Below, in pieces: positions 1 through 49,627 of a DNA stretch of 64,000 nt. The stretch spans positions 10,586 through 74,585 of the forward strand of contig JACRCE010000011.1 of assembly GCA_016213015.1 (NCBI GenBank), read 5' to 3'. The number at the start of each line of letters is the position of its first letter. Within the stretch, counting starts at the first letter, position 1. This stretch comes from Deltaproteobacteria bacterium (GTDB taxonomy: Bacteria; Desulfobacterota; GWC2-55-46). Both the position numbers and the translations under genes were made by a program. Under the pieces are notes generated by a model that saw nothing but the letters and a program-made list of their open reading frames with translations, had not been told where the DNA came from and searched no databases.

Positions 1-273
1 CCGCCGAGGTTGACGCCGACTATGGGAACCTTCCTGCCGGCGATGAGGCGCGCCGCGGCAAGCATGGTGCCGTCGCCTCCAAGAACTATCATGGCCTCGA
101 TTGCATCCGGCAGGTCGTCAAACGAAAGAGCCTCAGCCGCGCTTATCCTGTCCGCTAGGTACGGCGGTATGAAGACCTCTTTCCCCTTGCCCTTGATCCA
201 TACAGCCGCCTCGCGCCCAAAGGCAACGGCCTCGGCGGACGACGACTTTACCATGAGACCTATGCGCTTCATG
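1..273 (-). CDS. nadK: NAD(+) kinase, N-terminal part; 3' end runs off the window start
   Basis: The reverse-complement translation from the ATG at 273 reads MKRIGLMVKSSSAEAVAFGREAAVWIKGKGKEVF...MIVLGGDGTMLAAARLIAGRKVPIVGVNLGG, which contains the GGDGT motif diagnostic of NAD kinases. The 6-frame track does not list it because it is truncated at the edge. Confidence 0.8.
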
Positions 274-357
274 TCGCGCTCCCGTGAAAAGATAGGCTGT
301 AGGAAGAAATTATACGTGGCTAACAGTCTACAGCCTAACAGTCTACAGCCGGCAGTC

Positions 358-1374
358 CTACGGCTCTATCACGACCTTGAGCGAATCAGCGGCCTTAGCA
401 ACAAGACTAAAGCCCTTTGCCGTCTCGGCAAGCGGCAGACGGTGTGAAACCATGTCGCTGACCTTTACCCTGCCGGAAGCGATAAGGTCTATTGCGAGCA
501 TTGTATCATAAGGCGGCGAGGCATAAGAGTTGACAATGGTGATATTGTCCTTCCACAGATCGAAAAGCGGCATCGGATAGGTCTCGCCCGGCGCCTTCGG
601 CGCAAAGAACATCACGGCCCCGGCGCGCTCGACCGAGGCCAATCCCTGCGCTATGGCCGAGTCCGCGGAGGCGCATATCACAACTATGTCAGCTCCCCTG
701 CCAAGGCCGCTCCTTATCTTTTGAACCGCGTCCTTATCCGCCTTCACTGCGACGTCGGCCCCGGAGGCAAGCGCGGCCTCAATCCTGAAGTCGCTTATGT
801 CCGTGGCCGCTATCCTGCCGGCCCCAAGCGCCCTTGCGACTTTTATGTGCAACAGCCCGGACATGCCGCTGCCTATCACGAGCACGGTCTTTCCAGGCTC
901 CATTCCGCAGGCGCGAAGCCCCCTTATGACGCATCCCAAAGGCTCTGAAAAACTGCCCTCGACGAAACTAACGCTCTCAGGCAGGTGAAATACGCCCCTG
1001 TCAACGTTAATGGCCGGAACCCTGACGTACTCGCAAAACCCGCCGGGGTCGAAGTTGGTTGCGCGCAGCGTGTCGCACACCGAGTGGTTGCCTGACAAAC
1101 AATGCCTGCATGTGTTGCACGGCACATGATGCGCCGCCGTTACCCTGTCGCCGTTCTTGAAGCGTACAACCCCTGCGCCGACCTCGACAACGGTTCCGGC
1201 TATCTCATGGCCGAGTATGATCGGCGCTTTCTTTATGCGATACCACTCCATCACATCGCTTCCGCATATCCCGGAAGCCGCTATCTTGACGAGTATCTCG
1301 CCGTCGCCTATTTTTGGCGTAGGCACATCCTGTATGCGGACGTCGCTATTGTTGTAATATACCGCGGCCTTCAA
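358..1374 (-). CDS. Zn-dependent alcohol dehydrogenase (MDR family)
   Basis: The 338-aa ORF carries GHEIAGTVVEVG and the Cys-rich structural-zinc loop CNTCRHCLSGNHSVC, plus a GSGMSGL Rossmann motif. It overlaps the downstream aldolase gene by 4 nt. Confidence 0.85.
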   Translation of the reverse strand: MKAAVYYNNSDVRIQDVPTPKIGDGEILVKIAASGICGSDVMEWYRIKKAPIILGHEIAGTVVEVGAGVVRFKNGDRVTAAHHVPCNTCRHCLSGNHSVCDTLRATNFDPGGFCEYVRVPAINVDRGVFHLPESVSFVEGSFSEPLGCVIRGLRACGMEPGKTVLVIGSGMSGLLHIKVARALGAGRIAATDISDFRIEAALASGADVAVKADKDAVQKIRSGLGRGADIVVICASADSAIAQGLASVERAGAVMFFAPKAPGETYPMPLFDLWKDNITIVNSYASPPYDTMLAIDLIASGRVKVSDMVSHRLPLAETAKGFSLVAKAADSLKVVIEP

Positions 1375-12070: not shown

Positions 12071-12853
12071 GTGCAAAAAATGAAAAAACAACTTGAAACC
12101 ACGACAATCTTCCTGCTCGCATTCGTTGCGTTTGCATTAGCGGCGTTCATACCGGCTCAGGTTCAGGCACTCCCTACCTTGCAGCTTGACATAGCAAATG
12201 GAGTGTACGACCCTGTGAGCAAGACGATCGTTTCGTCCGCCGACAAATTTACGTTGTATGCATTCCTATTGCCTGGAAAAACTCAGGCGCCGGTAACCGG
12301 CGCATACTATATCTCCGCGGCGCTCGTTGCTACGAATGGCAAGACAATAGGGGCAGGCAACTTCGGCAGCTTCTCCTTCAACGGCGTTCAAAAGAACGTT
12401 ACCAACGATATGGTCTTTGGGACGCCGCCGCTTGAGGCCAATCTGGCATTTGACCCAGGCGATCTTTCCAAACACGGCATATACCCGACGTACTTCAACG
12501 AGTTTTCATTCAAGTTCAACTCCAACAACGAAACGGCTCAATACAACACGCAAGACAGGGCCAAGGCAGGTACGCCGATCAACATCGCGCCGAATCCTAA
12601 CAACGGCAACATGTATTACGCGGCGTTTTCGGTGGATACGACGCTTCTCGCGCCCGGCTATGCCATACATTTCGACCTGTACAACGAGAAGGTCAGACGC
12701 GGGGATACCGATGTAAATCTCTTTGCTCCCTTCTCGCACGACGCTCAGTCAAGGGCAAAGGTGCCGGAGCCTGCCACGGCGCTGTTGATTGGCGCCGGAT
12801 TTGCCGGTCTGTGGCTACATGGCAAAAAACAGAAGGGCACCTCTAAAAATTAG
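12071..12853 (+). CDS. PEP-CTERM sorting-domain secreted protein
   Basis: The ORF has an N-terminal signal peptide and a C-terminus VPEPATALLIGAGFAGLWLHGKKQKG (PEP motif, hydrophobic helix, basic tail). The last residues TSKN and the TAG stop are encoded by the terminal inverted repeat of repeat element B1. Confidence 0.8.
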   Translation: MQKMKKQLETTTIFLLAFVAFALAAFIPAQVQALPTLQLDIANGVYDPVSKTIVSSADKFTLYAFLLPGKTQAPVTGAYYISAALVATNGKTIGAGNFGSFSFNGVQKNVTNDMVFGTPPLEANLAFDPGDLSKHGIYPTYFNEFSFKFNSNNETAQYNTQDRAKAGTPINIAPNPNNGNMYYAAFSVDTTLLAPGYAIHFDLYNEKVRRGDTDVNLFAPFSHDAQSRAKVPEPATALLIGAGFAGLWLHGKKQKGTSKN

Positions 12854-12970
12854 AGATTTTTTCCGCAATCAAGGAATGGCGAAAATAAAAAGTGGAGCAT
12901 ATATGTGAATATGTGAGCATTTTTATTTTAGCCATGACACAGAGCCCGGAAAAAAGATCAATTTTTAGAG
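12842..12970. mobile_element. MITE-like element, family B, copy B1 (intact, ~129 bp)
   Basis: It has imperfect ~24-bp TIRs TCTAAAAATTAGAGATTTTTTCCG ... CCGGAAAAAAGATCAATTTTTAGAG. The interior is homologous to the other B copies. Confidence 0.6.
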
Positions 12971-13074
12971 GTGGCCATAAAATAAGCGCTTGATTTTTAA
13001 GAAATCTGCCGCTATAATGCCCAAAAAGCATGTAGGTTGAAAATCCCGTACTAATAAGGTGAACGGATTAACGA

Positions 13075-18416: not shown

Positions 18417-18470
18417 GGGTTGAAAGACGGTTCAGAGATAACCATAAACCGTCTTCCAACCGTCTTTAAC
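18417..18470. repeat. hairpin repeat, family E (GTTGAAAGACGGTT ... AACCGTCTT..AAC)
   Basis: This inverted repeat lies between purD and purE and is followed by the AGGAGG RBS of purE. A second copy is at 18967-19012. Confidence 0.6.
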
Positions 18471-18480
18471 AGGAGGCCAT

Positions 18481-18981
18481 ATGTCTTCAAAACCGGTCGT
18501 AGGCATTCTCATGGGGAGCGATTCAGACCTGGCCGTAATGCGGGAGGCGGAGAGCGCGCTCAAGACGCTTGGCGTGCCATGCGAGATGACCATATCGTCG
18601 GCGCACAGGACGCCTGAGAGGACCGGCGAGTATGCGAAAACGGCCGTAAAGCGCGGCATAAAGGTCATAATCGCCGGGGCCGGAAGCGCGGCTCATCTTG
18701 CAGGGTTCGTTGCCGCGCATACCCCCTTGCCCGTAATCGGCGTGCCCATCGATTCAGGTCCGCTCAAAGGGCTTGACGCCCTTCTTGCAACCGTTCAGAT
18801 GCCTGGCGGAGTGCCAGTCGCATCGATGGCGCTTGGCAAGGCAGGGGCAAGGAACGCGGGCATCTTCGCGGCCCAGATACTTGCCGTATCGGACAAGGCG
18901 CTGGCAAAAAGGCTTGCCTCATATAAAAAGACGCTCGCAAGACAGGTTGAGGAAAAGGCAAGGAAGTTGAAAGACGGTTGA
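18481..18981 (+). CDS. purE: N5-carboxyaminoimidazole ribonucleotide mutase
   Basis: The 166-aa ORF has the signature GILMGSDSDL...IAGAGSAAHL. Confidence 0.9.
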   Translation: MSSKPVVGILMGSDSDLAVMREAESALKTLGVPCEMTISSAHRTPERTGEYAKTAVKRGIKVIIAGAGSAAHLAGFVAAHTPLPVIGVPIDSGPLKGLDALLATVQMPGGVPVASMALGKAGARNAGIFAAQILAVSDKALAKRLASYKKTLARQVEEKARKLKDG

Positions 18982-19012
18982 GAAATAACCGTGAACCGTC
19001 TTTAACCATGAA
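18967..19012. repeat. hairpin repeat, family E copy 2
   Basis: The sequence is GTTGAAAGACGGTTgagaaataaccgtgAACCGTCTTTAAC. It overlaps the 3' end of purE. Confidence 0.6.
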
Positions 19013-21913: not shown

Positions 21914-21953
21914 TGCGGTTATCCGTTAACGGTTAACGATGAAGGCATAAAAG

Positions 21954-25629: not shown

Positions 25630-25707
25630 GGCAATTATGTGGGTCTTTCCAAACAAGGCGTCTTATAAAAATATCTTGTCCGCGTCGAGTTGTCCAGCCC
25701 TAAGTAA

Positions 25708-25787
25708 GACGGTTATCTGTGGACGGTTATCGGTTTAAGGATAATTATTCTTTCACCTGCACCGATAATTGATAACCGATAACCGTC
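25708..25787. repeat. palindromic intergenic repeat, family D, copy D1 (GGTTATCGG / CCGATAACC arms)
   Basis: The sequence is gacGGTTATCtgtggacGGTTATCGGTTTAAGGATAATTATTCTTTCACCtgcaCCGATAAttGATAACCGATAACCgtc. Confidence 0.65.
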
Positions 25788-25904
25788 TTTGCTGATTTTA
25801 CAGACCGGCCTTTGTGTGGTAGGATTGAGCATTCGATCGGCATAACTCAAACTGTAAGCACACCGGACAAACCTGACGGCTTGGATAAAGGATAACAAAT
25901 TATT

Positions 25905-27608
25905 ATGGCTAATATACTTTTTGAACCCGGTTCCCCATCTTTCATGGATCTCATTGGAAACGGCAAGATACACGTCGTTCCCAGATACCAGAGGGATTAT
26001 TCGTGGAATTATGAAGAATGGGATGATCTATGGAATGACATTGAAGGCATTAAAACCGAAAAGATACATTATATGGGTTACGTGGTTTTGCAAAAAACAG
26101 ATGACCCGCTGAAATTTTTGGTTATAGACGGCCAACAAAGAATAACCACGTTAAGCATTCTGGCGCTTGGCGTTATCAAGGTATTGGAAGACTGGGTCGA
26201 GCAAGGCGTGGACGCGGCCAACAACAAAAGAAGGATTGCAATTCTTTCGGATAAATTTATCGGATTTACTCCAGCCGCGTCTCTCATGCCTGTAAGCAAG
26301 TTACACCTTAACCGCAACAATGACGGCTTTTATAAAAGTTATTTGATACGGCGGCGCAAACCAACGGCGATTGGAAAGTTGAAGCCGTCGGAAAAAAAGA
26401 TGTGGAGGGCATTCGAGTTCTTTTGCGATAAATTGAAAAAAAGATTCGATGACGATAAGGACGGGGCAACGCTTTCGGACTTTCTGGAAACGACCATTTC
26501 AATGAATCTTGTCTTTACCTCTATTACGGTAGGAAATGATCTGAATGCCTATAAAGTATTTGAGACTCTGAATGCAAGGGGCGTCAAACTTTCAACAGGA
26601 GACCTGATTAAAAACTATCTGTTTGCCGAGGTGGCAAAAACAAGCGAGCATGATCTGGATGAAGCGGAAAGACAATGGCAAAGGATAAACGACATCCTGC
26701 AACAGATCGAACTGCCTGTATTTTTAAGGCACTATTGGAATTCAGCTCATACATTGGAACGAAAAAATACCCTTTACAAAGCCCTGAATAGCGAAGTAAG
26801 AGGCGCCGCCGCCGTATTTAATCTACTTGGGGACATGGATAAGCTGGCTCTTGTTTATACGGCACTTGACAAACCATCCGATACCTTATGGAGCAAGGAA
26901 CAAGCCGTCCTTATAGAAGAACTGTCTTTAGTCAGTAGAACACAGCCTTTTCCTTTATTGCTGGCCGCTTACAAGCATATAAAGCCGTTAGATGAGGCGG
27001 AATTTACCAAGATAATAAGGGATTTAGTTGTCGTGTCTTTTCGTTATAATACCGTCAGCGGATTGAATCCCAATACACAGGAAGAAGCATATAACAAAAC
27101 GGCTATTGGTATCAGTAAGGGAACGTATAAAACCGCGCGCGACGTGTTTAACGGTTACACAAAGGAATTATATGTGGCTGATGAGAAATTTGAAAACGAC
27201 TTTACCTACATGACAATGAACACCACGCGCAATAAAACACTGGCAAGGTATCTTTTATGCAAAATGGAAAGACAACTCTCCGCCATACCGGTTGATTGGA
27301 ACGACAGTAAAGTTACCATTGAACATATACTTCCTGAAAATCCCAATTCCGAATGGGAAAAATGGTTCGACGCTGAACAACAGAATGAAAGCATCTACCG
27401 TATAGGCAACCTTACCTTGCTGGAAACAGGCAAAAACAAAGATTGCGGAAATAAGCTTTTTGCCGAAAAAAAAGACATCTATGCGACAAGTCAATACCTG
27501 CTTACCAAAAACAAAACATGCTTTAACGAATGGAAGCCTGAAGTCTTATTAAGAAGACAGCAAGGGATGGCCTCTCTTGCTAAAACCGTTTGGAAGGTTC
27601 AGTATTAA
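25905..27608 (+). CDS. DUF262/DUF1524 protein (GmrSD-like type IV restriction / ParB-like NTPase + His-Me-finger nuclease)
   Basis: The N-terminal motifs are VPRYQRDYSW and IDGQQRITT. The C-terminal motif is TIEHILPEN...RIGNLTLLETGKN. GC content is markedly lower (~40-45 %) than the ~60 % of flanking genes. Confidence 0.75.
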   Translation: MANILFEPGSPSFMDLIGNGKIHVVPRYQRDYSWNYEEWDDLWNDIEGIKTEKIHYMGYVVLQKTDDPLKFLVIDGQQRITTLSILALGVIKVLEDWVEQGVDAANNKRRIAILSDKFIGFTPAASLMPVSKLHLNRNNDGFYKSYLIRRRKPTAIGKLKPSEKKMWRAFEFFCDKLKKRFDDDKDGATLSDFLETTISMNLVFTSITVGNDLNAYKVFETLNARGVKLSTGDLIKNYLFAEVAKTSEHDLDEAERQWQRINDILQQIELPVFLRHYWNSAHTLERKNTLYKALNSEVRGAAAVFNLLGDMDKLALVYTALDKPSDTLWSKEQAVLIEELSLVSRTQPFPLLLAAYKHIKPLDEAEFTKIIRDLVVVSFRYNTVSGLNPNTQEEAYNKTAIGISKGTYKTARDVFNGYTKELYVADEKFENDFTYMTMNTTRNKTLARYLLCKMERQLSAIPVDWNDSKVTIEHILPENPNSEWEKWFDAEQQNESIYRIGNLTLLETGKNKDCGNKLFAEKKDIYATSQYLLTKNKTCFNEWKPEVLLRRQQGMASLAKTVWKVQY

Positions 27609-27635
27609 AAATATTCGACGGTTACGAGCCAATCC

Positions 27636-28397
27636 ATGTCCATCAAACCCAAGGCGGCCTTTTTCTCGTTCACCTGTTGCGAGGGGTGCCAGCTCATGAT
27701 ACTGAGCTGCGAGAAGGAACTGCCGTCCATACTCGAACATATCGAGATAGTCAACTTCCGCGAGGCCATGACCGAACGGAGCGAGGACTATCAGGCGGCC
27801 TTCATCGAAGGCTCCGTCAGCAAACGTGAAGAAATCAAAAAACTCAAAAAGATACGTGAAAAGGCAAAGGTGGTGGTTGCCCTTGGCGCGTGCTCCGCAA
27901 TTGGCGGACTTAATTGCCTTAAAAACCGCTTCCAGATGGACTATCTAAGGAAAGAGGTCTACGGGCAGGACGGCCTGAAGTTCAAGGCCTTTGAAACCAT
28001 ACCGGCAAGGCCCATTGACTCGATAATCCATGTCGACTACTATATACACGGCTGTCCCATACCCAAAAAAGAGTTCCTGTCCGTCCTGACCTCCCTGCTC
28101 ATGGGAAGCGTCCCACGCATCGTGAACCACCCGGTTTGCGTAGACTGCAAGATAGCGGGAAATATCTGCGTGTTCGAGAAGGGCTTAACCTGCCTCGGCC
28201 CGATAACAAGGGCCGGATGCGACGCGGTCTGTATTACTTACGGATGCGTATGCTGGGGATGCAGGGGGCCGGTCGACGACCCGAACACCGCGGCGCATAA
28301 GGAAACGCTTCTAAGACACGGCCTTTCAGCCGATGACGTATCGCTCGCTTTGAGTCTTTACGGCGCTCACAAAACAAAGACTACCTCTAAAAATTAG
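27636..28397 (+). CDS. [NiFe]-hydrogenase small subunit, group-3 (MvhG/VhuG-like)
   Basis: The ORF has the N-terminal FSFTCCEGCQ motif and distal [4Fe-4S] Cys clusters (CVDCK...C, CxxGCxxxC...CWGCRGP). The TAG stop at 28395-28397 lies within the terminus of repeat B2. Confidence 0.85.
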   Translation: MSIKPKAAFFSFTCCEGCQLMILSCEKELPSILEHIEIVNFREAMTERSEDYQAAFIEGSVSKREEIKKLKKIREKAKVVVALGACSAIGGLNCLKNRFQMDYLRKEVYGQDGLKFKAFETIPARPIDSIIHVDYYIHGCPIPKKEFLSVLTSLLMGSVPRIVNHPVCVDCKIAGNICVFEKGLTCLGPITRAGCDAVCITYGCVCWGCRGPVDDPNTAAHKETLLRHGLSADDVSLALSLYGAHKTKTTSKN

Positions 28398-28654
28398 GGA
28401 AGCTCTGATTAATTCGCCAATCCGTCATTCTCGCTCCGCGAAGCAATCTCGTCTTCAAGGAAATCAATAAGTTACGAGATTGCCGCGCCGCAAAAGCGCG
28501 GCTCGCAATGACAAATAAGAATTAATCAGAGCTTCCTTAGATAGTTTTCCCGAGGTCAAGGAAGGGCGAAAATAAAAAGCGTAGCATATATGCAATATGT
28601 GAGCATTTTTATTTTAGCCATGACGCAGAGATCGGGAAAAATAGCAATTTTTAA
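28385..28654. mobile_element. family-B MITE-like element copy B2 carrying a nested family-A MITE
   Basis: The B TIRs are cctctaaaaattag ... gggaaaaatagcaatttttaa. The interior is homologous to B1 (agcatatatgcaatatgtgagcatttttattttagccatgac). Confidence 0.6.
28398..28536 (+). mobile_element. MITE family A, copy A1 (139 bp)
   Basis: It has perfect 17-bp TIRs GGAAGCTCTGATTAATT / AATTAATCAGAGCTTCC and is flanked by a 4-bp direct duplication TTAG (28394-28397 and 28537-28540). Confidence 0.8.
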
Positions 28655-29944
28655 ATGAAAAAAGACCTCCACATAAAGATAGATGAAATAACCCGCGTCG
28701 AGGGACACGGCAACGTGGTCATTGACGTAAAGAAGGGCGTGGTTAAGGATGTCGCTCTTGAGATAATCGAGTCCCCCCGGTTTTTCGAGATGATGTTAAG
28801 GGGCAGAAGATACGACGAGGCACACCACATCATGTCGCGCATCTGCGGCATCTGCGCGGTGAGCCATACGTCGGCCTCTCTCAAGGCCATAGAGTCGGCA
28901 ATGGGCATTCGCATCTCAAGGCAGGCGACGCTATTGAGGAAACTCGCCTTTGCGGGCGAGATGCTTCAGAGCCATATACTGCATCTGTACTTTCTCGTAT
29001 TCCCTGACTTTTTAGGCGAAGGCTCGATAGTGCCGATATTGAAGACCCATCCTGAGATAGCAAGGAAGGGTCTTGAACTCAAGAGGCTCGCCAACGAGAT
29101 ATGCGCCGTCGTGGCCGGCAGGCACATCCACCCGATATCGCTCGCCCCCGGAGGCGTGGCGCATCTGCCGACCGCTCAGGAACTTAAAAAACTCCGCTCC
29201 AGCCTCGATGCCTCCTTTGACGACCTTGAGTTCACTTATGACCTGCTCTCAAAGGTTCACGTGCCGGAGTTCGAGAAAAGGCGCGACTTCGTGTCGCTGA
29301 AGTCGCGGGGAGAGTACGGCGCTTACGCCGGAGAGCCGGCATCAAGCGAGGGCTACGCCATTACGGCCAAGACCTACACGAAAAAGATTCGGGAGTACAC
29401 GGTTGCCCACTCCGCGGCAAAGCAGGCAAGAAGTCCGAAGGGCGCCTTCATGGTAGGCGCCCTCGCAAGGGTCAACAACAACTGGAAAAGGCTCTCACAG
29501 CGCTCGCGCGCTATAGCCGAGAAGGCCGGATTGAGGCCGCCATGCTTCAATCCGTTTCACAACAACACGGCCCAACTCGTGGAATGTTTTCAGATGACCG
29601 GGGACGCGATACGGATGATAGACGCCCTGCTTGAGGCCGGATTGAAGCCGGAGCCGTTGAAAAAACCCAAGGGATGGGGCATCGGCATAGGCATCGTCGA
29701 GGCCCCGCGAGGGACGCTCTACCACGAATACCGGATAAACAGGGACGGCTTTGTCGAGGCCGCGGAGTGCGTCATACCCACGGCGCAGAATCTAAGGGCT
29801 ATCGAAGAAGACCTCCGCGCCTTCGTGCCGCTCATAATGGATAAGCCGAAAGAGGAGATACGGCGTATAGTGGAGACGCTCGTAAGGGCCTATGACCCGT
29901 GCATATCGTGTTCGACGCATATAATGGACGTAAGATTCGTTTAG
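28655..29944 (+). CDS. [NiFe]-hydrogenase large subunit, group-3
   Basis: The ORF has the N-terminal RICGICAVSH motif and the C-terminal DPCISCSTH motif, followed by a short IMDVRFV tail. The first Cys is Cys and not Sec, so this is NiFe, not NiFeSe. The ATG directly abuts the end of MITE B2 and no SD is visible. Confidence 0.9.
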   Translation: MKKDLHIKIDEITRVEGHGNVVIDVKKGVVKDVALEIIESPRFFEMMLRGRRYDEAHHIMSRICGICAVSHTSASLKAIESAMGIRISRQATLLRKLAFAGEMLQSHILHLYFLVFPDFLGEGSIVPILKTHPEIARKGLELKRLANEICAVVAGRHIHPISLAPGGVAHLPTAQELKKLRSSLDASFDDLEFTYDLLSKVHVPEFEKRRDFVSLKSRGEYGAYAGEPASSEGYAITAKTYTKKIREYTVAHSAAKQARSPKGAFMVGALARVNNNWKRLSQRSRAIAEKAGLRPPCFNPFHNNTAQLVECFQMTGDAIRMIDALLEAGLKPEPLKKPKGWGIGIGIVEAPRGTLYHEYRINRDGFVEAAECVIPTAQNLRAIEEDLRAFVPLIMDKPKEEIRRIVETLVRAYDPCISCSTHIMDVRFV

Positions 29945-31077: not shown

Positions 31078-31167
31078 ACGGTTATCAGTTATCGGTAGTC
31101 GGTTATCGGTTTGAAAACAATGATTCTTTCACCTTCGCCGATAACCAATTACCGATTACCGATAACC
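31078..31167. repeat. family D palindromic repeat, copy D2
   Basis: The sequence is aacGGTTATCagttatcggtagtcGGTTATCGGTTTgaaaacaatgATTCTTTCACCttcgCCGATAAccaattaCCGATtaCCGATAACC. It has the same orientation as D1. Confidence 0.65.
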
Positions 31168-31544
31168 TTCTTCACCAGCCTCAACTCCTCAGGCAACCTC
31201 ATCGGCTTGCCGTCATTTCCGACCGAGGCAAGCGTTACGCTGCCCTCAACCAGAGTCTTCTCCTGCTTGAACAAGACGTGTTCAAACGTAATGGTCGCGC
31301 CCGTTGCGCCTGAGAGACGCGTATCGAGGATGAGCAGGTCGTCATATCTCGCCGGTGCGATATATCGCGCCTCCACGCTCCGCACCACGAATATCACGCC
31401 TGAGGTGTGCAGTTCTCCAAGCGAAACACCCCGCTCTCTCAACAACTCCGTCCTGCCGCGCTCGAAGTATCGCAGATAGTTGGCGTAGTAGACCACGCCT
31501 CCGCAGTCGGTGTCCTCGTAATATATCCTTATCGGTATACGCAT
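31149..31544 (-). CDS. acyl-CoA thioesterase, YbgC/4HBT family
   Basis: The 131-aa ORF begins MRIPIRIYYEDTDCGGVVYYANYLRYFERGR, a hotdog-fold signature. Confidence 0.8.
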   Translation of the reverse strand: MRIPIRIYYEDTDCGGVVYYANYLRYFERGRTELLRERGVSLGELHTSGVIFVVRSVEARYIAPARYDDLLILDTRLSGATGATITFEHVLFKQEKTLVEGSVTLASVGNDGKPMRLPEELRLVKKVIGNR

Positions 31545-32880: not shown

Positions 32881-33062
32881 CGCGGTTATCGGTGGACGGT
32901 TATCCGTTATCGGATTAAGGATAAGGAAAACCACCTCACCCTACCCTCTCCCCCTTGGGGAGAGTAGAAAAAAACGAAACTCTTTCTTAGGGAAGCAATT
33001 AATCAGAGCTTCCTTAATTATCTTTTTCCTTCACCGATAACCGTCAACTGATAACCGATAAC
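32881..33062. repeat. family D palindromic repeat, copy D3, expanded by an internal insertion containing a family-A MITE remnant
   Basis: The D arms are gcGGTTATCGGtggacGGTTATCcGTTATCGGaTTAAGGATAA ... TTATCTTTTTCCTTCACCGATAACCgtcaactGATAACCGATAAC. The interior carries the hairpin ctctcccccttggggagag and, at 32991-33013, GGAAGC+AATTAATCAGAGCTTCC, flanked by TTAG/TTAA. Confidence 0.6.
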
Positions 33063-33083
33063 AGCCTTTACATATATGCGGCC

Positions 33084-33956
33084 TTGCTGTACCATATTTT
33101 TATGGTACTAACAGCGGTTGTCTTACTTGTCGTCCTGCTCGTCATGCCGGATGCCGCCGATGCGTGGGGGCCGGCGACGCACCTTGAACTCGCGCTCACG
33201 GCGCTCAACAACGCCTCCGTCGTTTCCGCACCGGTCAGGTCGCTCATCGAACATTTCCCTTACGACTTCCTTTACGGCAACATAAGCGCAGACATCTATG
33301 TCGGTAAAAATCTCGTTGAGGAGTTGAAGCACTGCCATAACTGGAAGGCCGGTTTCGCCCTCCTGAAAAACGCAAAGTCCGGCTCTCAGAGGGCGTTTGC
33401 CTACGGGTATCTCTCCCATCTCGCGGCGGACACCGTGGCTCATAATCACTTCATCCCCGAAAGGATGCTTCGCTCGTTCTCCGCAAGGACATTGAGGCAC
33501 GTCTACTGGGAGATGCGGGCCGACGCCCTGGCCGACAAACGTGTCTGGCGCCTGCCGAAAAGGATCGCGGCTCAGGCCGCTGAAGACAACGACGCCCTGT
33601 TGAACGCAACTATTGAGGGCGCTCCGTTATCGTTCAGAACGAACAAGACCATATTCTCAAGCATCATGAGCATCAACAGGATGAAGCACTGGCACAGGAT
33701 GCTCGATCTGCTCTCCGTTACGTCAAGATGGTCTCTCGACAAACAGGAAAGGGAGTTGCACTTCAACGACTCCCTTGACGCCATAATGGGACTTCTCAAA
33801 TCCCCGCTCAAGGCGCCTTGCCTCAAAAAAGACCCCATCGGCAGACTCAACCTTGCCCTTGCCTCCACGGCGAGAAAACGCCTGAGGGCAATGAAAAAGG
33901 CCGGCCTCGCATGGGAAGAGGCGCTTTCAGAGGAACTCGCCAAAGTAGCGCCCTGA
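33084..33956 (+). CDS. secreted zinc-dependent phospholipase C / S1-P1 nuclease-like protein
   Basis: The ORF has a signal peptide, then AWGPATHLELA...HLAADTVAHNHF His-rich zinc-ligand motifs. Family assignment is tentative. Confidence 0.5.
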   Translation: MLYHIFMVLTAVVLLVVLLVMPDAADAWGPATHLELALTALNNASVVSAPVRSLIEHFPYDFLYGNISADIYVGKNLVEELKHCHNWKAGFALLKNAKSGSQRAFAYGYLSHLAADTVAHNHFIPERMLRSFSARTLRHVYWEMRADALADKRVWRLPKRIAAQAAEDNDALLNATIEGAPLSFRTNKTIFSSIMSINRMKHWHRMLDLLSVTSRWSLDKQERELHFNDSLDAIMGLLKSPLKAPCLKKDPIGRLNLALASTARKRLRAMKKAGLAWEEALSEELAKVAP

Positions 33957-34320
33957 TAAAAATTAGAAATTTTTTTCGAGGTCAAGGAAGGGCGAAAATA
34001 AACTTGTCCTCGTGGTATCTATCGAGCAAAGCGGAGCATATAATTAAGGAAGCTCTGATTAATTCGCCGACCCGTCATTCTCGCTCCGCGAAGCAATCTC
34101 GTCTTCAAGGAAATCAACAACTTAGAGATTGCCGCGCCGCGAAAGCGCGGCTCGCAATGACAAAATAAGAATTAATCAGAGGTTCCTTAATATATGAACA
34201 TTGGGCCAACCGCAAAAGCGCGGTTAGGCCCTGCAAGGAAGCTCACGCTCTCTTTGAAGCCCGTCTTATTGCGCCCTGACGCCCGTAACGTAACAGTCGG
34301 GGAAAATAGCAATTTTTACC
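33957..34320. mobile_element. family-B element copy B3 (long variant) carrying a nested family-A MITE at a different internal site
   Basis: The left TIR is aaaaattagaaatttttttcgaggtcaagg and the right TIR is cggggaaaatagcaatttttacc. Its terminus overlaps the TAA stop of coaBC (34316-34318). Confidence 0.55.
34048..34186 (+). mobile_element. MITE family A, copy A2 (139 bp)
   Basis: The TIRs are GGAAGCTCTGATTAATT / AATTAATCAGAGGTTCC (one mismatch). It is flanked by the 4-bp duplication TTAA (34044-34047 and 34187-34190). Confidence 0.8.
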
Positions 34321-38822: not shown

Positions 38823-38911
38823 CCGATAATCGGTTGACGGTTATCAGTGAAGGTGAACGAATAATTATCCTTAAACCGATAACTGATAACCGTCTTATAA
38901 CCGATAACCGT
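38823..38911. repeat. family D palindromic repeat, copy D4 (inverted orientation)
   Basis: The sequence is ccGATAAtCGGttgacGGTTATCagtGAAGGTGAAcGAATAATTATCCTTAAACCGATAActGATAACCgtcttataaCCGATAACCG. Confidence 0.65.
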
Positions 38912-38917
38912 TCTTAC

Positions 38918-39715
38918 TTACAACGTCTGCATTACCCATGTTACCCTGCCGACAATCGCAACTTCTCCGGCGCTCGCCGTAAGCTCCGGGAACTGCGGGT
39001 TATCGGGCCGCATAATCAACGCATTATTGCCCTTGAATATGCGCCGCACTGTGACGCTTCCGCTTGCCGTCCTTACGATGTATATCGCGCCGTCCCTTAG
39101 CGTTAAATCCCTATACTGTATCCCGACGATTGCGCCGTCTCTTATGGTGGCCTCCATGCTGTCGTCCGACACGCTAAAGGCAACCGGGCCCGCCTTTGCC
39201 AGAAGCTCTGAAACGATCAGCGTATCAACCGGTACGCGCAGGAGCGCGTTAGCAGGGTCTTTCAACAACTCAAGCCTGTACACGTTGATCGAGATCATCT
39301 CTTGCGGGGAGCGCTCGTCTTGGACGCCGCCCCCGGCCTCAAGGCCGCGCCAATCTATCACCGGCTCCTCTGCCCTCGCGTATTGATTGAGCGCGGCATC
39401 AACCACGGCGTACATGCCTTCATCGTTGACGTGTCCATACTGCCCTTGTGCCCGCGCAGGGACCTGCGAAGGCATAATCCCCTTGCCTGACATAAGCCAC
39501 TCCATGTTAACGCCTAACTTCAGGCATATTAACTCGGTTAACGACGCGCCGGGAGACCTCTTGCCCTGCTCAATCATGGTTATATAAGCCGGAGATACGT
39601 TCAATAAGGCCGCAAATTCAGCGCGGTTAAGCCTGCCGCGTACGATGCCGATCCTGCTTGCGATGCTTGACTTCCGACGGCCTTCCGAACCGTTGTTAAT
39701 TCTTTTTCTTGACAT
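38918..39715 (-). CDS. XRE-type HTH + S24 (LexA/CI-like) peptidase repressor
   Basis: The N-terminal HTH is AEFAALLNVSPAYITMIEQGKRSP, followed by a long linker. The C-terminal S24 fold (...SMEATIRDGAIVGIQ...) has a conserved Ser-Lys dyad region. Confidence 0.7.
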   Translation of the reverse strand: MSRKRINNGSEGRRKSSIASRIGIVRGRLNRAEFAALLNVSPAYITMIEQGKRSPGASLTELICLKLGVNMEWLMSGKGIMPSQVPARAQGQYGHVNDEGMYAVVDAALNQYARAEEPVIDWRGLEAGGGVQDERSPQEMISINVYRLELLKDPANALLRVPVDTLIVSELLAKAGPVAFSVSDDSMEATIRDGAIVGIQYRDLTLRDGAIYIVRTASGSVTVRRIFKGNNALIMRPDNPQFPELTASAGEVAIVGRVTWVMQTL

Positions 39716-42453: not shown

Positions 42454-43404
42454 TTACTTCACCTCGCTTACCAGCACCTTGCCTTCCAGCATCTTCGGCA
42501 TCCACATCAAGCCGTGCTTCCTGACGTACAGAAAATCGGCAGGCCCGCGCACCTCTTCGCTGAGTGAGCGCGTTGACAACTCGCCTGTCTTGAGATTAAA
42601 GACGCGCAGGACGCCGGACTTGTCAAACGAAACCCAGTCCGAGAATATCAGGTTGTCGTCGTCAAACCTTGCGAGGCCGTCGAGATAACCAAGCGGCTTG
42701 GTCAAACTTTGATAGCTGTGCTCGCCGCCCTTATACTCAACTACGCCAAGCTCTCCGTTGCCTTGTTTGCCGTCGCCGAATCCCGCCACATAAAGTTTAT
42801 CCGCCTTTTTATCGTAATACAGGCCGTTTGGGCCTTTGATGCCATGTGCAATTGCCTTGTAAGAGGTTGAGTCCGCATCCTGCCCGATGGTTATCATGTA
42901 GACCTTGCCGATGTCGGTCGCCGACAAAAAGAGGGTCTGCTCATTGAACACCTCAAGATCATTCAAAAAGCCGCTCTTCTCCGACGACAGGTCAAGGTCA
43001 AAGACCTTCTCCCGCGTCTTTATATCAAAGCCGACGACCCTGTCAACGTCGGCAACATAGAGCGTATCCTTGATGATCGCCATGCCCTTTGGCGAATTGA
43101 GATGCCCATCCTTTGGCAGATAGTTCCTGTTCAGTATCATACCGTCATGGCCTATCTCGGTTATGAAGCCGTCGTTGTCCTTTGCGTAGTGGACAAGTTT
43201 GTCCCCCATGTTAGATACGAATATCCGCTTGCAGTCCTCGGTCATAACAACTGATTCAGGGGAAGAAAAACCCTGAATGGTCATTGGAGAGACGGCCTTG
43301 TGCTTCATGGCCATACATCCGGCAATCATAATGACGGACGCAGCCACGAGGACGGTCTTGACGAACCTTACGACATCATTGCTCTTCATACGCTGCCTCC
43401 TCAT
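42454..43404 (-). CDS. lipoprotein with predicted beta-propeller (SMP-30/NHL-like) fold
   Basis: The ORF has a signal peptide plus lipobox (IMIAGC). Repeated ...G.D....YV.D... blades suggest a beta-propeller. Its start overlaps the glyQ stop (ATGA). Confidence 0.5.
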
Positions 43405-44294
43405 TCTTGTACGACGTTTGTCGGGTCTTTTTTCAACAACGGGAAGCCCATCTCTTCGCGGGTCTTGAGATATGTCCGTGCGGTGTCCCTTGCAAGCGCC
43501 CTTACGCGGCCTATATAGCTCGTCCTCTCGGCAACGCTTATCGCGCCCCTTGCGTCAAGGAGGTTGAACGTATGCGAGCACTTGAGGCAGTAGTCATAAG
43601 CCGGGAGTGAAAGTCCCTTTTCAATAAGTCGTTTCGATTCGGCCTCGTACATGTCGAACAGTTTGAAGAGCATGGCCTTGTCCGATTCGTCGAAGTTGTA
43701 GCCTGACTGCTCGATTTCATTCCTCTTGTGCACGTCCCCATAGGCAACGCCATCAGTCCACTTAAGGTCGAAGACGTTGTCAACGCCCTGCAGATACATG
43801 GCTATCCTTTCAAGGCCATAGGTTATCTCGCCTGAGACGGGCTTCAAGTCAATGCCGCCGGCCTGCTGGAAGTACGTGAACTGGGTTATCTCCATGCCGT
43901 CAAGCCAGACCTCCCAGCCAAGCCCCCACGCGCCGAGCGTCGGAGACTCCCAGTCGTCCTCCACGAACCTTATGTCATGGGCAAGCGGGTCGATGCCCAA
44001 CTCCTTAAGGCTCATCAGGTATATGTCTTGAATATCGTCCGGCGACGGTTTAAGTATAACCTGAAATTGATAGTAGCGCTGGAGCCTGTTGGGGTTTTCG
44101 CCGTAGCGCCCGTCCGTGGGACGCCTCGACGGCTCCACGTAGGCCGCCTTCCACGGCTCAGGCCCGAGCACGGCCAAAAAGGTCGCGGGGTTAAAGGTGC
44201 CTGCGCCCTTCTCGATGTCGTAAGGCTGTTGTATGACGCAGCCCCTTTTTGCCCAAAACTGCTGGAGCCTCATTATCACGTCCTGAAAAAGCAT
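43401..44294 (-). CDS. glyQ: glycine--tRNA ligase alpha subunit
   Basis: The ORF begins [26 protein letters not shown] and is conserved along its full length. The ATG at 44294 is preceded by AGGAGG. The track ORF starts at GTG 44309. Confidence 0.9.
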
Positions 44295-44324
44295 AGCCCT
44301 CCTTGCCACATGCGATTATGATAG

Positions 44325-44462
44325 GGAAGGTCTGATTAATTCTTATTTTGTCATTGCGAGCCGCGCTTTCGCGGCGCGGCAATCTCTAAGTTGTTGATTT
44401 CCTTGAAGACGAGATTCTACGCTGCGCGAGAATGACGGGTCGGCGAATTAATCAGAGCTTCC
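44325..44462 (-). mobile_element. MITE family A, copy A4 (138 bp, inverted orientation)
   Basis: The TIRs are GGAAGGTCTGATTAATT / AATTAATCAGAGCTTCC. It is flanked by the 4-bp duplication ATAG (44321-44324 and 44463-44466) and lies about 30 bp upstream of the glyQ start. Confidence 0.8.
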
Positions 44463-44597
44463 ATAGGCAAACATAGCAAAAAAAAGCGCGAAAGTCATCA
44501 TGGAAATAATCAGGCGGCTTATACCTCCGGGACGCACAAAAACAACGTTCAGGGTGTATACTGTAACGTCGTCAGGATTACCAAAAGGATACCCACT

Positions 44598-47696: not shown

Positions 47697-47767
47697 CCTG
47701 AACAAATTTTGAGTTTTTCAACAAATTGGAGGTCCATGCGATACTCATTCCAGCCTTTTATTGGTTG

Positions 47768-48238
47768 CCTTTAAAAATTAGGGAGGCTCTGATTAATTCT
47801 TATTTTGTCATTGCGAGCCCAGCACCACTTTGGATTATGAAAGCGTGTTCCTTGGCAAATTCCTTCGTGCAACAAAGTGGTGCTGGGTTGATTTCCTTGA
47901 AGACGAGATTCTACGCTGCGCGAGAATGACGGATCGGCGAATAAATCAGAGCTTCCTTAGATAGTTTTTCCGAGTTCAAGGAAGGGCGAAAATAAACTTG
48001 TCCTCGCGTGTATTTAGCGGGGAAAGCGCAGCATATACGTTAATATGTGAGCATTGGGCTACCTCCCCCATTCCCCCCCTTAGTAAGGGGGGGAATGGGG
48101 GAGGTAGCCTCGGCAAGGAATTGCTCATTTTGAAAGCGCGTCTTATCGCGCCTGCGGCGCGAGCCGACGGGCAACCGATGTATTTTCGCCCTGACACCCG
48201 TAACGCAATCGGTCGGGAAAAATAGCAATCTTTAGAGG
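47768..48238. mobile_element. composite repeat: family-B long variant (B4) with nested A3 and a 53-bp perfect palindrome
   Basis: The B TIRs are cctttaaaaattag ... cgggaaaaatagcaatctttagagg. The interior is homologous to B3. The palindrome is ggctacctcccccattccccccc-ttagtaa-gggggggaatgggggaggtagcc at ~48057-48109. Confidence 0.55.
47782..47956 (+). mobile_element. MITE family A, copy A3 (175 bp; internal hairpin module replaced)
   Basis: The TIRs are GGAGGCTCTGATTAATT / AAATCAGAGCTTCC. The TSD is TTAG (47778-47781 and 47957-47960). The internal hairpin is CCCAGCACCACTTT...AAAGTGGTGCTGGG instead of CCGCGC...GCGCGG. Confidence 0.75.
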
Positions 48239-48244
48239 CAGCCA

Positions 48245-49627
48245 CTACATCTCCACCATCTCCCCGTCCTCCGGCGTATGCACCTTGAAGCCGAACCTCT
48301 CCCTTGCAAGGGATGCAAGCGACTCTCTCGCCTCTTTTTCGCCGTGCACCATATAGACCTCAGGCGAATCGTTGAAGGCGGCAAGCCATTCAAGAAGTTC
48401 CTCTCTCCCTGCATGTGCTGAAAAGCCGTTTATCGTGTATATCGGCGCCTTGACGACCACCTGTTCGCCGAGCACTGACACGGACTTTGCGCCGTCAACG
48501 AGCCGTCTGCCAAGCGTGCCTTCGGCCTGATAGCCGACGAATATTATCCCGCATTCGGAGCGCCAGAGGTTATGCTTGAGGTGATGCCGTATCCTGCCCC
48601 CTTCGCACATGCCGCTTCCGGCTATGATGATGCAACCGGATTTGACCATGTTGAGCTTCATGGAGTCTTCCACGGAGCGCACGAAATGCATCCTCATGGA
48701 AAAGTCCTTCTGCTTGCCGGTAAAGAGCCTTCTTGCCTCGTCGTCAAAGCACTCCGGGTGCGCCGCGTATATCCTTGTAACCGCCTCGGCCAGCGGGCTG
48801 TCAAGATATACGTCTATCTTGTAAAGACGCCCCTCGCGCACGAGGTTGTTGATGATGTAAAGCAGGTCTTGCGTCCTGCCGACCGCGAAAGACGGGATGT
48901 AGACGTTGCCGCCGCGCTTGAAGGTGGTCTTGATGGCGGCCGTCAATTCGCCTATGCTCTCGTTTATCGGCTTATGAGACCTGTTGCCGTAGGTGGACTC
49001 CATGATAACGTAGTTCGCGCCCTCGGGCTTGAACGGGTCTTTTATTATTGGGTTGTCCTTTTTGCCGATGTCTCCTGAGAAGACTAATTTCTTTTCGACG
49101 CTCGAGTCCTGAAACCATATCTCCACCGAGGCCGAACCAAGGATATGCCCGGCATCCAGAAACCTGTACTTGACGCCGTTGCCGAGATGAAAGACCTTGT
49201 CATACGGTTTGGTATCGAAGAGCGGCAGGAGGTTTTCAACGTCTTCGGTGGTGTAGAGCGGTTCGGCCGGGGCCATGCCTGTCCTCATCCCCTTTTTCGT
49301 AAGCCACTCGGCGTCGCTTTGCTGGATACCGGCCGAGTCATAGAGCATCGGCTCAAGCAGGTCCCGCGTGGGAGAGGTCGTTATTACCCTGCCCTTGAAG
49401 CCTTCCTTCAGCGCCTTTGGCAGCATCCCTGAATGGTCTATGTGCGCGTGGGTTACGAAGATGTAGTCCAACTCAACGGGATTGAACGGGAAGGGGCGCT
49501 TGTTGGCATCGTCTGAGCCGTTGCCCTGACGCATGCCGCACTCCACCAGAATCCTGAGCCTGTTGACCTCTATATAATAACAGGACCCGGTTACGGTGCT
49601 TGCGCCTCCTACGAATCGAAGCTTCAA
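48245..49627 (-). CDS. beta-CASP / MBL-fold ribonuclease (RNase J / CPSF-like RNA-metabolising metallo-beta-lactamase)
   Basis: The ORF has the HAHIDHSG motif followed by beta-CASP and C-terminal RNA-specificity domains. It is 460 aa. Confidence 0.75.
   Translation of the reverse strand: MKLRFVGGASTVTGSCYYIEVNRLRILVECGMRQGNGSDDANKRPFPFNPVELDYIFVTHAHIDHSGMLPKALKEGFKGRVITTSPTRDLLEPMLYDSAGIQQSDAEWLTKKGMRTGMAPAEPLYTTEDVENLLPLFDTKPYDKVFHLGNGVKYRFLDAGHILGSASVEIWFQDSSVEKKLVFSGDIGKKDNPIIKDPFKPEGANYVIMESTYGNRSHKPINESIGELTAAIKTTFKRGGNVYIPSFAVGRTQDLLYIINNLVREGRLYKIDVYLDSPLAEAVTRIYAAHPECFDDEARRLFTGKQKDFSMRMHFVRSVEDSMKLNMVKSGCIIIAGSGMCEGGRIRHHLKHNLWRSECGIIFVGYQAEGTLGRRLVDGAKSVSVLGEQVVVKAPIYTINGFSAHAGREELLEWLAAFNDSPEVYMVHGEKEARESLASLARERFGFKVHTPEDGEMVEM

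Follow-up and report, generated by a model that had tools for sequence, protein, structure and literature searches.

Bacterial MITEs attributed to IS families, IS5 among them, are already known, as are their insertion into operons and their overlap with gene ends (PMC3184786, PMC5896051, PMC4596501, PMC10969869). Chunjie of Geobacter uraniireducens and the QMITEs of Coxiella are found inside operons and overlapping gene ends; Chunjie has 21-bp repeats and a 9-bp duplication, and the duplications measure 2-4 bp for QMITE1 and 7-11 bp for QMITE2 (PMC3184786, PMC5896051). A MITE of Porphyromonas gingivalis that contains a minisatellite has been attributed to an IS5-family parent as its non-autonomous derivative (PMC4596501). 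Here we compare with these systems a family of short repeats, MITE A, carried by a 64,000-nucleotide stretch of deltaproteobacterial DNA (the window).

We searched the window with the 17-mer GGAAGCTCTGATTAATT, allowing at most one mismatch, and obtained 9 matches where 0.14 were expected (mean of 100 dinucleotide-preserving shuffles, 0/100 of which reached 9). These matches resolve into four paired elements of 138-175 bp and a solitary right end at 32997-33013 belonging to a 23-bp remnant. The initial annotation had described a MITE family of four copies plus a remnant, and all its coordinates and sequences were verified. Its “perfect 17-bp TIRs” apply to copy 1, where the terminal inverted repeat is in fact 18 bp long (GGAAGCTCTGATTAATTC), but not to copies 2-4, which have one mismatch in one or both repeat arms. 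The copies do lie in both orientations, as had been described, with 1 and 2 running one way and 3 and 4 the other, and their pairwise identity is 92-96% (4-8% difference). All four of the 4-bp duplications that had been claimed (TTAG, TTAA, ATAG and TTAG for copies 1 to 4) are exact when read from the sequence, the ATAG of copy 3 being the only one of the four that departs from YTAR. A TA duplication of the IS630/Tc1 type was considered and rejected, as it would need the repeat tips to mismatch in copy 3. The G+C content is 47-50% in the elements, ~40% in their AT-rich flanks and 54% in the window, and the longest stop-free stretch spans 34-58 codons per copy. MITE A thus combines the features of a MITE: small size, no coding capacity, inverted repeats, duplications with corresponding empty sites (see below) and multiple dispersed copies (four plus the remnant within 64 kb). 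The coordinates of all repeats are collected in Table 1.

Table 1. Coordinates of the repeat elements in the window and of palindromes made of two fused MITE A ends in other genomes
Feature	Position	Strand	Description
MITE A copy 1	28398-28536	+	139 bp; perfect 18-bp repeats; TTAG at 28394-28397 and 28537-28540; nested in MITE B
MITE A copy 2	34048-34186	+	139 bp; TTAA at 34044-34047 and 34187-34190; in central AT-rich part of partial MITE B
MITE A copy 3	44325-44462	-	138 bp; ATAG at 44321-44324 and 44463-44466; ~30 bp upstream of likely glyQ start
MITE A copy 4	47782-47956	-	175 bp; TTAG at 47778-47781 and 47957-47960; nested in MITE B
MITE A remnant	32991-33013		23 bp; GGAAGC then full right repeat AATTAATCAGAGCTTCC; TTAG at 32987-32990, TTAA at 33014-33017
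MITE B, intact copy	12835-12981	+	nhmmer E = 2e-44; after PEP-CTERM gene; paralogous empty site for copies 1, 2 and 4
MITE B with MITE A copy 1	28376-28658	+	both together form the spacer between hydrogenase genes
MITE B, partial, with MITE A copy 2	33945-34200	+	own TTAG (…GATAAAAATTAGAAATTTTT…) unoccupied
MITE B with MITE A copy 4 and further insertions	47762-48246	+	nhmmer pieces 47957-48055 and 48180-48246
27-bp TIR-TIR palindromes	L001 2137-2163; L026 4515-4541; L039 122-148; L077 2450-2476; L083 978-1004		other genomes
Third repeat family	18419-18456; 18966-19003; 21916-21948; 25710-25795; 31086-31173; 32883-32915 with 33040-33074; 38824-38920		intergenic palindromes

The interior of MITE A is free of genes and made up of two inverted hairpin modules (GTCATT…GCAATCTC). 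The element as a whole is thus predicted to form a long, branched stem-loop, whose stability far exceeds that of shuffled sequences (z = -4.5 to -8 across the copies; -38.2 kcal/mol and z = -8 for copy 1, folded as single-strand DNA). Copy 4 owes its greater length (175 bp) to the exchange of its central hairpin for a different, longer one with a 15-bp stem (47818-47887). The interior arms are formed by a small hairpin unit, GTCATT[GC][CT]GAG…GAAG[CA]AATCTC, located at 28424-28452 and 28476-28512 in copy 1, and we also observed stand-alone units that lack MITE A ends (at about L088 247, 6914 and 6997; L070 5560; L006 3751; L099 509). This unit is probably an independent REP-like module captured between IS5-type ends. 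At L030 99-1483 (contig JACQXV010000308.1), a MITE A relative is split by an IS110-family element encoding a 349-aa transposase (152-1201, minus strand). The insertion falls inside the GTCATTGCGA hairpin module and resembles the IS1111 insertions in Coxiella QMITE2/REP elements.

Correcting the initial annotation, we found that three of the four MITE A copies (1, 2 and 4) lie within another repeat family, MITE B, a second dispersed MITE-like repeat of ~147 bp whose inverted ends approximate GGCACCTCTAAAAATT / AATTTTTAGAGGTGGCC; the flanks of copy 3 are unrelated. We discarded the possibility that the shared flanks were paralogous hydrogenase operons: the gene at 12071-12853 encodes a PEP-CTERM protein, so the flank common to the copies is the dispersed repeat itself. 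The intact MITE B copy reads CTCTAAAAATTAGAGATTTTTT and has a single TTAG. Copies 1 and 4 are placed directly after this same TTAG, which is repeated on their far side, and they are opposite in orientation and hence the products of independent insertion events. Copy 2 occupies a TTAA that is single in the paralogues, which read …ATACGTTAATATG… there. In total, MITE B copies provide three paralogous empty sites within the window (12835-12981; 33945-34047). In another genome (L108), a relative of MITE A lies in the same TTAG of MITE B, and MITE B itself was detected in several deltaproteobacterial MAG loci (L006 269-417, L101 4888-5038, L108 1896-2044 and 5274-5408, L063 5798-5908).

MITE B showed further peculiarities. 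Its left end gives a TAG stop codon to the genes that abut it, namely those of the hydrogenase small subunit and the PEP-CTERM protein (12071-12853). The copies starting at 33945 and 47762 have in common a 27-bp insert (CTTGTCCTCG…; 34003-34029 and 47997-48024), the latter copy contains a G/C-rich hairpin block of ~125 bp after 48055 (48056-48179), and in the relative L286 (927-1069) a different insert of ~143 bp carries two AGCCTGCCCCCGAATGTTT…CGGGGG hairpins. Small insertions appear to favour MITE B.

The copies had been described as all intergenic, which is true, but copy 1 sits within an operon, between the small-subunit (27636-28397) and large-subunit (28655-29944) genes of a NiFe hydrogenase, and its TTAG duplication contains the small-subunit stop codon. 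Together, MITE B and copy 1 make up a 257-bp spacer in this operon. We retrieved orthologous loci using the hydrogenase small-subunit protein. In two of them, L286 and L287, the small subunit is 91% identical in amino acids to that of the window, the DNA is 86% identical, and MITE B is present at the hydrogenase junction with its TTAG unoccupied (GTCTCTAAAAATTAGATAGTTTTTCCGAGG), another insert of ~143 bp lying farther in. The empty site there reads …CTCTAAAAATTAG|ATAGTTTTT… (= CTCTAAAAATTAGATAGTTTTTCCGAGG), and the occupied site in the window reads CTCTAAAAATTAG[139 bp]TTAGATAGTTTTCCCGAGG, or, with a longer left context, CCTCTAAAAATTAG[139 bp]TTAGATAGTTTTCCCGAGG. The initial annotation had suggested comparing related strains for empty sites and had taken MITE A for a transposed element and not a structural repeat; this orthologous empty site of copy 1 in a close relative and the paralogous empty sites in the window bear that out, and demonstrate that MITE A inserted with a 4-bp duplication. 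The family had also been called recently active, which is accurate in a relative sense only: the copies differ by 4-8%, and copy 1 is younger than the split from a lineage 86% identical in DNA.

An earlier state of the junction is found on the syntenic contig L288 (selB, hydrogenase small and large subunits, GAF-GGDEF gene; 81-87% DNA identity), where 4 bp (ATGA) are shared by the small- and large-subunit genes and the window segment 28371-28652 is absent. These sequences give the order of events: the genes overlapped at first, MITE B was then inserted into their junction, and MITE A in turn entered MITE B, creating its 4-bp duplication. The small subunit now takes its TAG stop codon from the left end of MITE B. 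In the relative L289 (1060-1168), the hydrogenase spacer is filled by a palindrome (CCGTGAACCGTGACCGT…) similar in flavour to the third repeat family described below. Upstream of the operon, the window contains a low-GC segment (25704-27634; 0.435 vs 0.54) with a GmrSD-type restriction endonuclease gene (25905-27608), bounded on the left by a palindromic repeat (25710-25795). This segment is absent from the syntenic L288, which has 148 bp there, is present in the L287 lineage, and looks like a small acquired defence island.

To place the ends of MITE A, we ran a short BLAST search of the repeat against plasmids, which retrieved the end of an annotated IS5-family element on the Pseudomonas antarctica plasmid pP27494_1. 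This end (GGAGGCACTGATTAATTCGG) is 17/20 identical to that of MITE A, and the tetramers on either side of the element are TTAG and TTAA. The element encodes a transposase with DDE_Tnp_1 and DUF772 domains that shares 49% identity with the one of E. coli IS5, which makes it an IS5-group element; similar ends, with CTAA and TTAG duplications, were seen in its relatives from P. syringae and Hydrogenophilus. Using an alignment of IS5-group transposases, we then retrieved 80 metagenome loci, 64 of which allowed both ends to be placed. These 64 elements are 1.16-1.25 kb long and have ends of the form GGAA(A/G)C(G/T)CTGA…TC (consensus GGAAACGCTGAATAATTC; the end of IS5 itself is GGAAGGTGCGAA…). Over their 128 ends, the base found in MITE A is the commonest or second commonest at 18/18 positions, and the best single ends are 16/18 identical to MITE A (L137, GGAAGCACTGATTTATTC; L164, GGAAACGCTGATTAATTC). 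Perfect 4-bp duplications flank 27 of the 64 elements, and 26 of these are YTAR (CTAG 12, TTAG 5, TTAA 5, CTAA 4), the remaining one being TAAA; most of the other elements are flanked by two YTAR tetramers that differ by one base. Given the match of the ends and the same YTAR duplications, MITE A has a standard IS5-group end and leaves an IS5-group footprint. The IS5-type assignment of the initial annotation, made from a 4-bp duplication at a YTAR/WTAR target, is thereby strengthened by ends 16/18 to 17/20 identical to those of autonomous IS5-group elements that make the same duplications.

As had been noted, the window encodes no transposase of this type (tblastn with an IS5-group transposase, no match at E<=10). 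An IS with the exact ends GGAAGCTCTGATTAATTC, i.e. with T at position 7 and TTAATTC, was not found in the window, in at least 112 genome loci, in 80 metagenome loci or in 80 viral-contig loci, and no ORF recurred beside the unpaired exact repeat matches among the at least 112 genome loci. Repeat pairs 900-2500 bp apart were rejected as candidate parents: they comprise host genes between two separate MITEs and, in L030, the MITE split by an IS110-family insertion. The whole of MITE A had no BLAST match in plasmids. In viral contigs, the 17-mer occurred at six loci, none with a transposase, and a scan of these contigs with an alignment of those IS5-group transposases whose elements have T at end position 7 returned mostly IS5 proper and no closer ends. 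We infer that this genome has, or once had, an IS5-group transposase to match.

We scanned one genome per species for exact matches to the 17-mer and obtained at least 112 loci. Since ~70 chance matches are expected in 596 Gb, most of the unpaired matches are probably due to chance. At least 54 matches are paired with an inverted partner, delimiting elements of 99-297 bp in other genomes. Among the paired matches listed, 33/54 have perfect 4-bp duplications, 32/33 of them YTAR (TTAG 11, CTAA 10, TTAA 10, CTAG 1), the other one being TGAA. According to the record labels of the matches listed, which may be affected by errors in MAG binning, the hosts are mostly Gammaproteobacteria MAGs and the isolate Microbulbifer thermotolerans DSM 19189, together with several groundwater Deltaproteobacteria MAGs, Nitrospiraceae, Nitrosomonas, Mariprofundaceae and Gemmatimonadales. 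Several copies per MAG are found elsewhere too (e.g. JACRNN01, WFVC01, JANOGQ01), and JABTVA01 and M. thermotolerans DSM 19189 are likewise rich in the element. Between genomes, only the element ends are conserved, and the interiors differ widely. Nearest to the window's copies among the matches listed are those of groundwater Deltaproteobacteria MAGs (L095, L108, L006), a label that is also carried by homologues of the window's hydrogenase, so that this uncultivated lineage is the most likely origin of the window.

The remnant lacks everything between position 6 of the left repeat and the start of the right repeat, and occupies the centre of a palindromic repeat of the CGGTTATCGG type. Because each MITE A end has an inner part that is itself palindromic (AATTAATT), the remnant is most simply explained by slippage or recombination that deleted sequence across the long hairpin, and it presumably arose by deletion between the two palindromic repeats. 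The proposal that it is an internal-deletion derivative is plausible, and comparable mini-palindromes recur in other genomes, where two MITE A ends are fused into perfect or near-perfect 27-bp TIR-TIR palindromes (GGAAGCTCTGATTAATTCAGAGCTTCC and variants). The one in L077 has TTAA on both sides. These could be deletion scars or minimal elements. In some Lysobacterales loci (L003, L004, L035 and L053), such a palindrome is one end of a larger element. The window also contains a third family of repeats, intergenic palindromes whose units are CGGTTATCGG / CCGATAACCG.

A broader reading is that the end GGAAGCTCTGATTAATTC marks a very widespread, horizontally spreading MITE superfamily, in which only the transposase-binding ends are conserved and the interior consists of swappable hairpin modules. 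It is motivated by the presence of the same ends in MAGs labelled Gamma-, Delta-, Beta- and Zetaproteobacteria, Nitrospiraceae and Gemmatimonadales, by the swapped interior hairpin of copy 4, by the GTCATT…AATCTC module that occurs alone and, once, as an IS110-family insertion site, by the repeated use in independent genomes of one TTAG in another MITE, and by 23-27 bp TIR-TIR palindromes that could represent either scars of excision or deletion or the smallest form able to move. We regard it as speculative and unlikely.

Taking these results together, we put the probability that MITE A copies are non-autonomous transposons, moved in trans by an IS5-group DDE transposase of the IS5 family, at about 0.9. 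By analogy with the known behaviour of IS5, this transposase would bind both 18-bp terminal inverted repeats (GGAAGCTCTGATTAATTC), excise or copy the element and, by cutting an AT-rich YTAR tetranucleotide with a 4-bp stagger, insert it there; repair of the cut would create the 4-bp duplication. Short duplications could also be made by a transposase from outside the IS5 group, whether from IS427 or ISL2, two other groups of the IS5 family, or from the IS701 family, which makes 4-bp duplications as well. A duplication of this length does not by itself identify a family, the exact parent was not found in the collections searched (best metagenomic end match 16/18), and the ATAG of copy 3 is off the YTAR rule. 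Against such a mobiliser, which we hold to be very improbable, the ends of MITE A can be aligned, from their outermost base inwards, with the ends of 64 autonomous elements making the same YTAR 4-bp duplications, the transposases of these elements show 50-67% identity to a query whose own identity to IS5 is 49%, and both transposases scanned with Pfam (n = 2) carry DDE_Tnp_1 and DUF772. Still more improbable, to the point of being hardly credible, is a reading of MITE A as a structural or regulatory palindrome of the REP type that multiplied through recombination, gene conversion or segmental duplication, its 4-bp repeats being incidental; the empty sites already contradict it. The strong fold of the element would suit such a palindrome, and the MITE B flanks shared by 3/4 copies look at first sight like the duplication of a larger block. 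Yet copies 1 and 4 occupy the same MITE B TTAG in opposite orientations, MITE B exists without the element, its TTAG single, both in the window and at the relative's orthologous site, copy 3 has unrelated flanks, and exact 4-bp duplications accompany 33/54 listed elements of unrelated genomes, 32 of them YTAR.

A role for the host would add to transposition by an IS5-group enzyme and not replace it: copies that arose by transposition might now be kept as an mRNA-stabilising or processing hairpin in the hydrogenase operon, or as a promoter or operator of glyQ. Copy 1 lies between two genes that need co-expression and have a 4-bp overlap in a relative, copy 3 is placed ~30 bp upstream of glyQ, and the predicted structure is stable. 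For glyQ, reading the sequence points to ATG at 44294 (minus strand), preceded by AAGGAGG, as the likely start, and copy 3 ends ~30 bp upstream of it, in the leader or promoter region; the mechanical ORF (43401-44309, minus strand) begins at GTG 44309, and the ATG at 44294 is the more likely start. Consensus scans revealed no promoter-like or terminator-like sites inside copies 1 and 3, Rfam at the gathering threshold matched two tRNAs and nothing else over the window, and the orthologous sites of relatives function without the element. We therefore consider a host function improbable; copy 1 in the hydrogenase operon and copy 3 ahead of glyQ are presumably tolerated and co-transcribed.

As an IS5-type MITE from a deltaproteobacterial lineage without cultivated members, MITE A is a clean and fully documented case. 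Its main points of interest are the hydrogenase insertion series, the repeated use of one TTAG in another MITE and the breadth of genomes with the same ends. The hydrogenase locus amounts to a stepwise record of insertion, from the 4-bp gene overlap kept in a relative, through a first MITE that splits the genes and donates a stop codon, to a second MITE inside the first. For annotation, elements of this type give rise to spurious small ORFs, broken assemblies and confused gene starts and stops, and here the glyQ start and the end of the hydrogenase small subunit are affected. Since these ends recur in many environmental genomes, naming the family and building a profile for it would improve repeat masking in MAGs and help to find the parent IS. 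How such elements are known to work is unchanged by these findings.

Searches of the literature found no match to the MITE A repeat and only unrelated primer matches to the GTCATTGCGAG motif, in line with the suggestion that the family is probably undescribed, as far as the open literature, the only place compared, is concerned. Among autonomous elements, MITE A is closest to IS5-group IS (E. coli IS5, the pP27494_1 element, L137 and L164), with which it shares ends that start with GGAAG, have CTGA (GCGA in IS5) at positions 8-11 and are AT-rich thereafter, an end identity of 16/18 to 17/20, and a 4-bp target duplication at YTAR in AT-rich targets; unlike MITE A, with 138-175 bp and no gene, these IS are 1.16-1.25 kb long and encode a DDE_Tnp_1 transposase. 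Classical MITEs (Correia/NEMIS of Neisseria, ERIC, RUP, Nezha, Chunjie, QMITE1/2) resemble MITE A in being small and non-coding, with inverted repeats, duplications, a strong stem-loop and AT-rich intergenic sites, but none shares sequence with it, and their ends and duplication lengths differ; Correia duplicates TA. Membership of MITE A in the Chunjie or Coxiella QMITE families was likewise rejected on duplication lengths and ends. The P. gingivalis MITE appears to stand apart by its other host phylum, other IS5 subgroup and other ends. Next to these systems, MITE A is an ordinary, well-documented kind of bacterial mobile DNA, belonging to a family that is itself apparently new and possibly very widespread.
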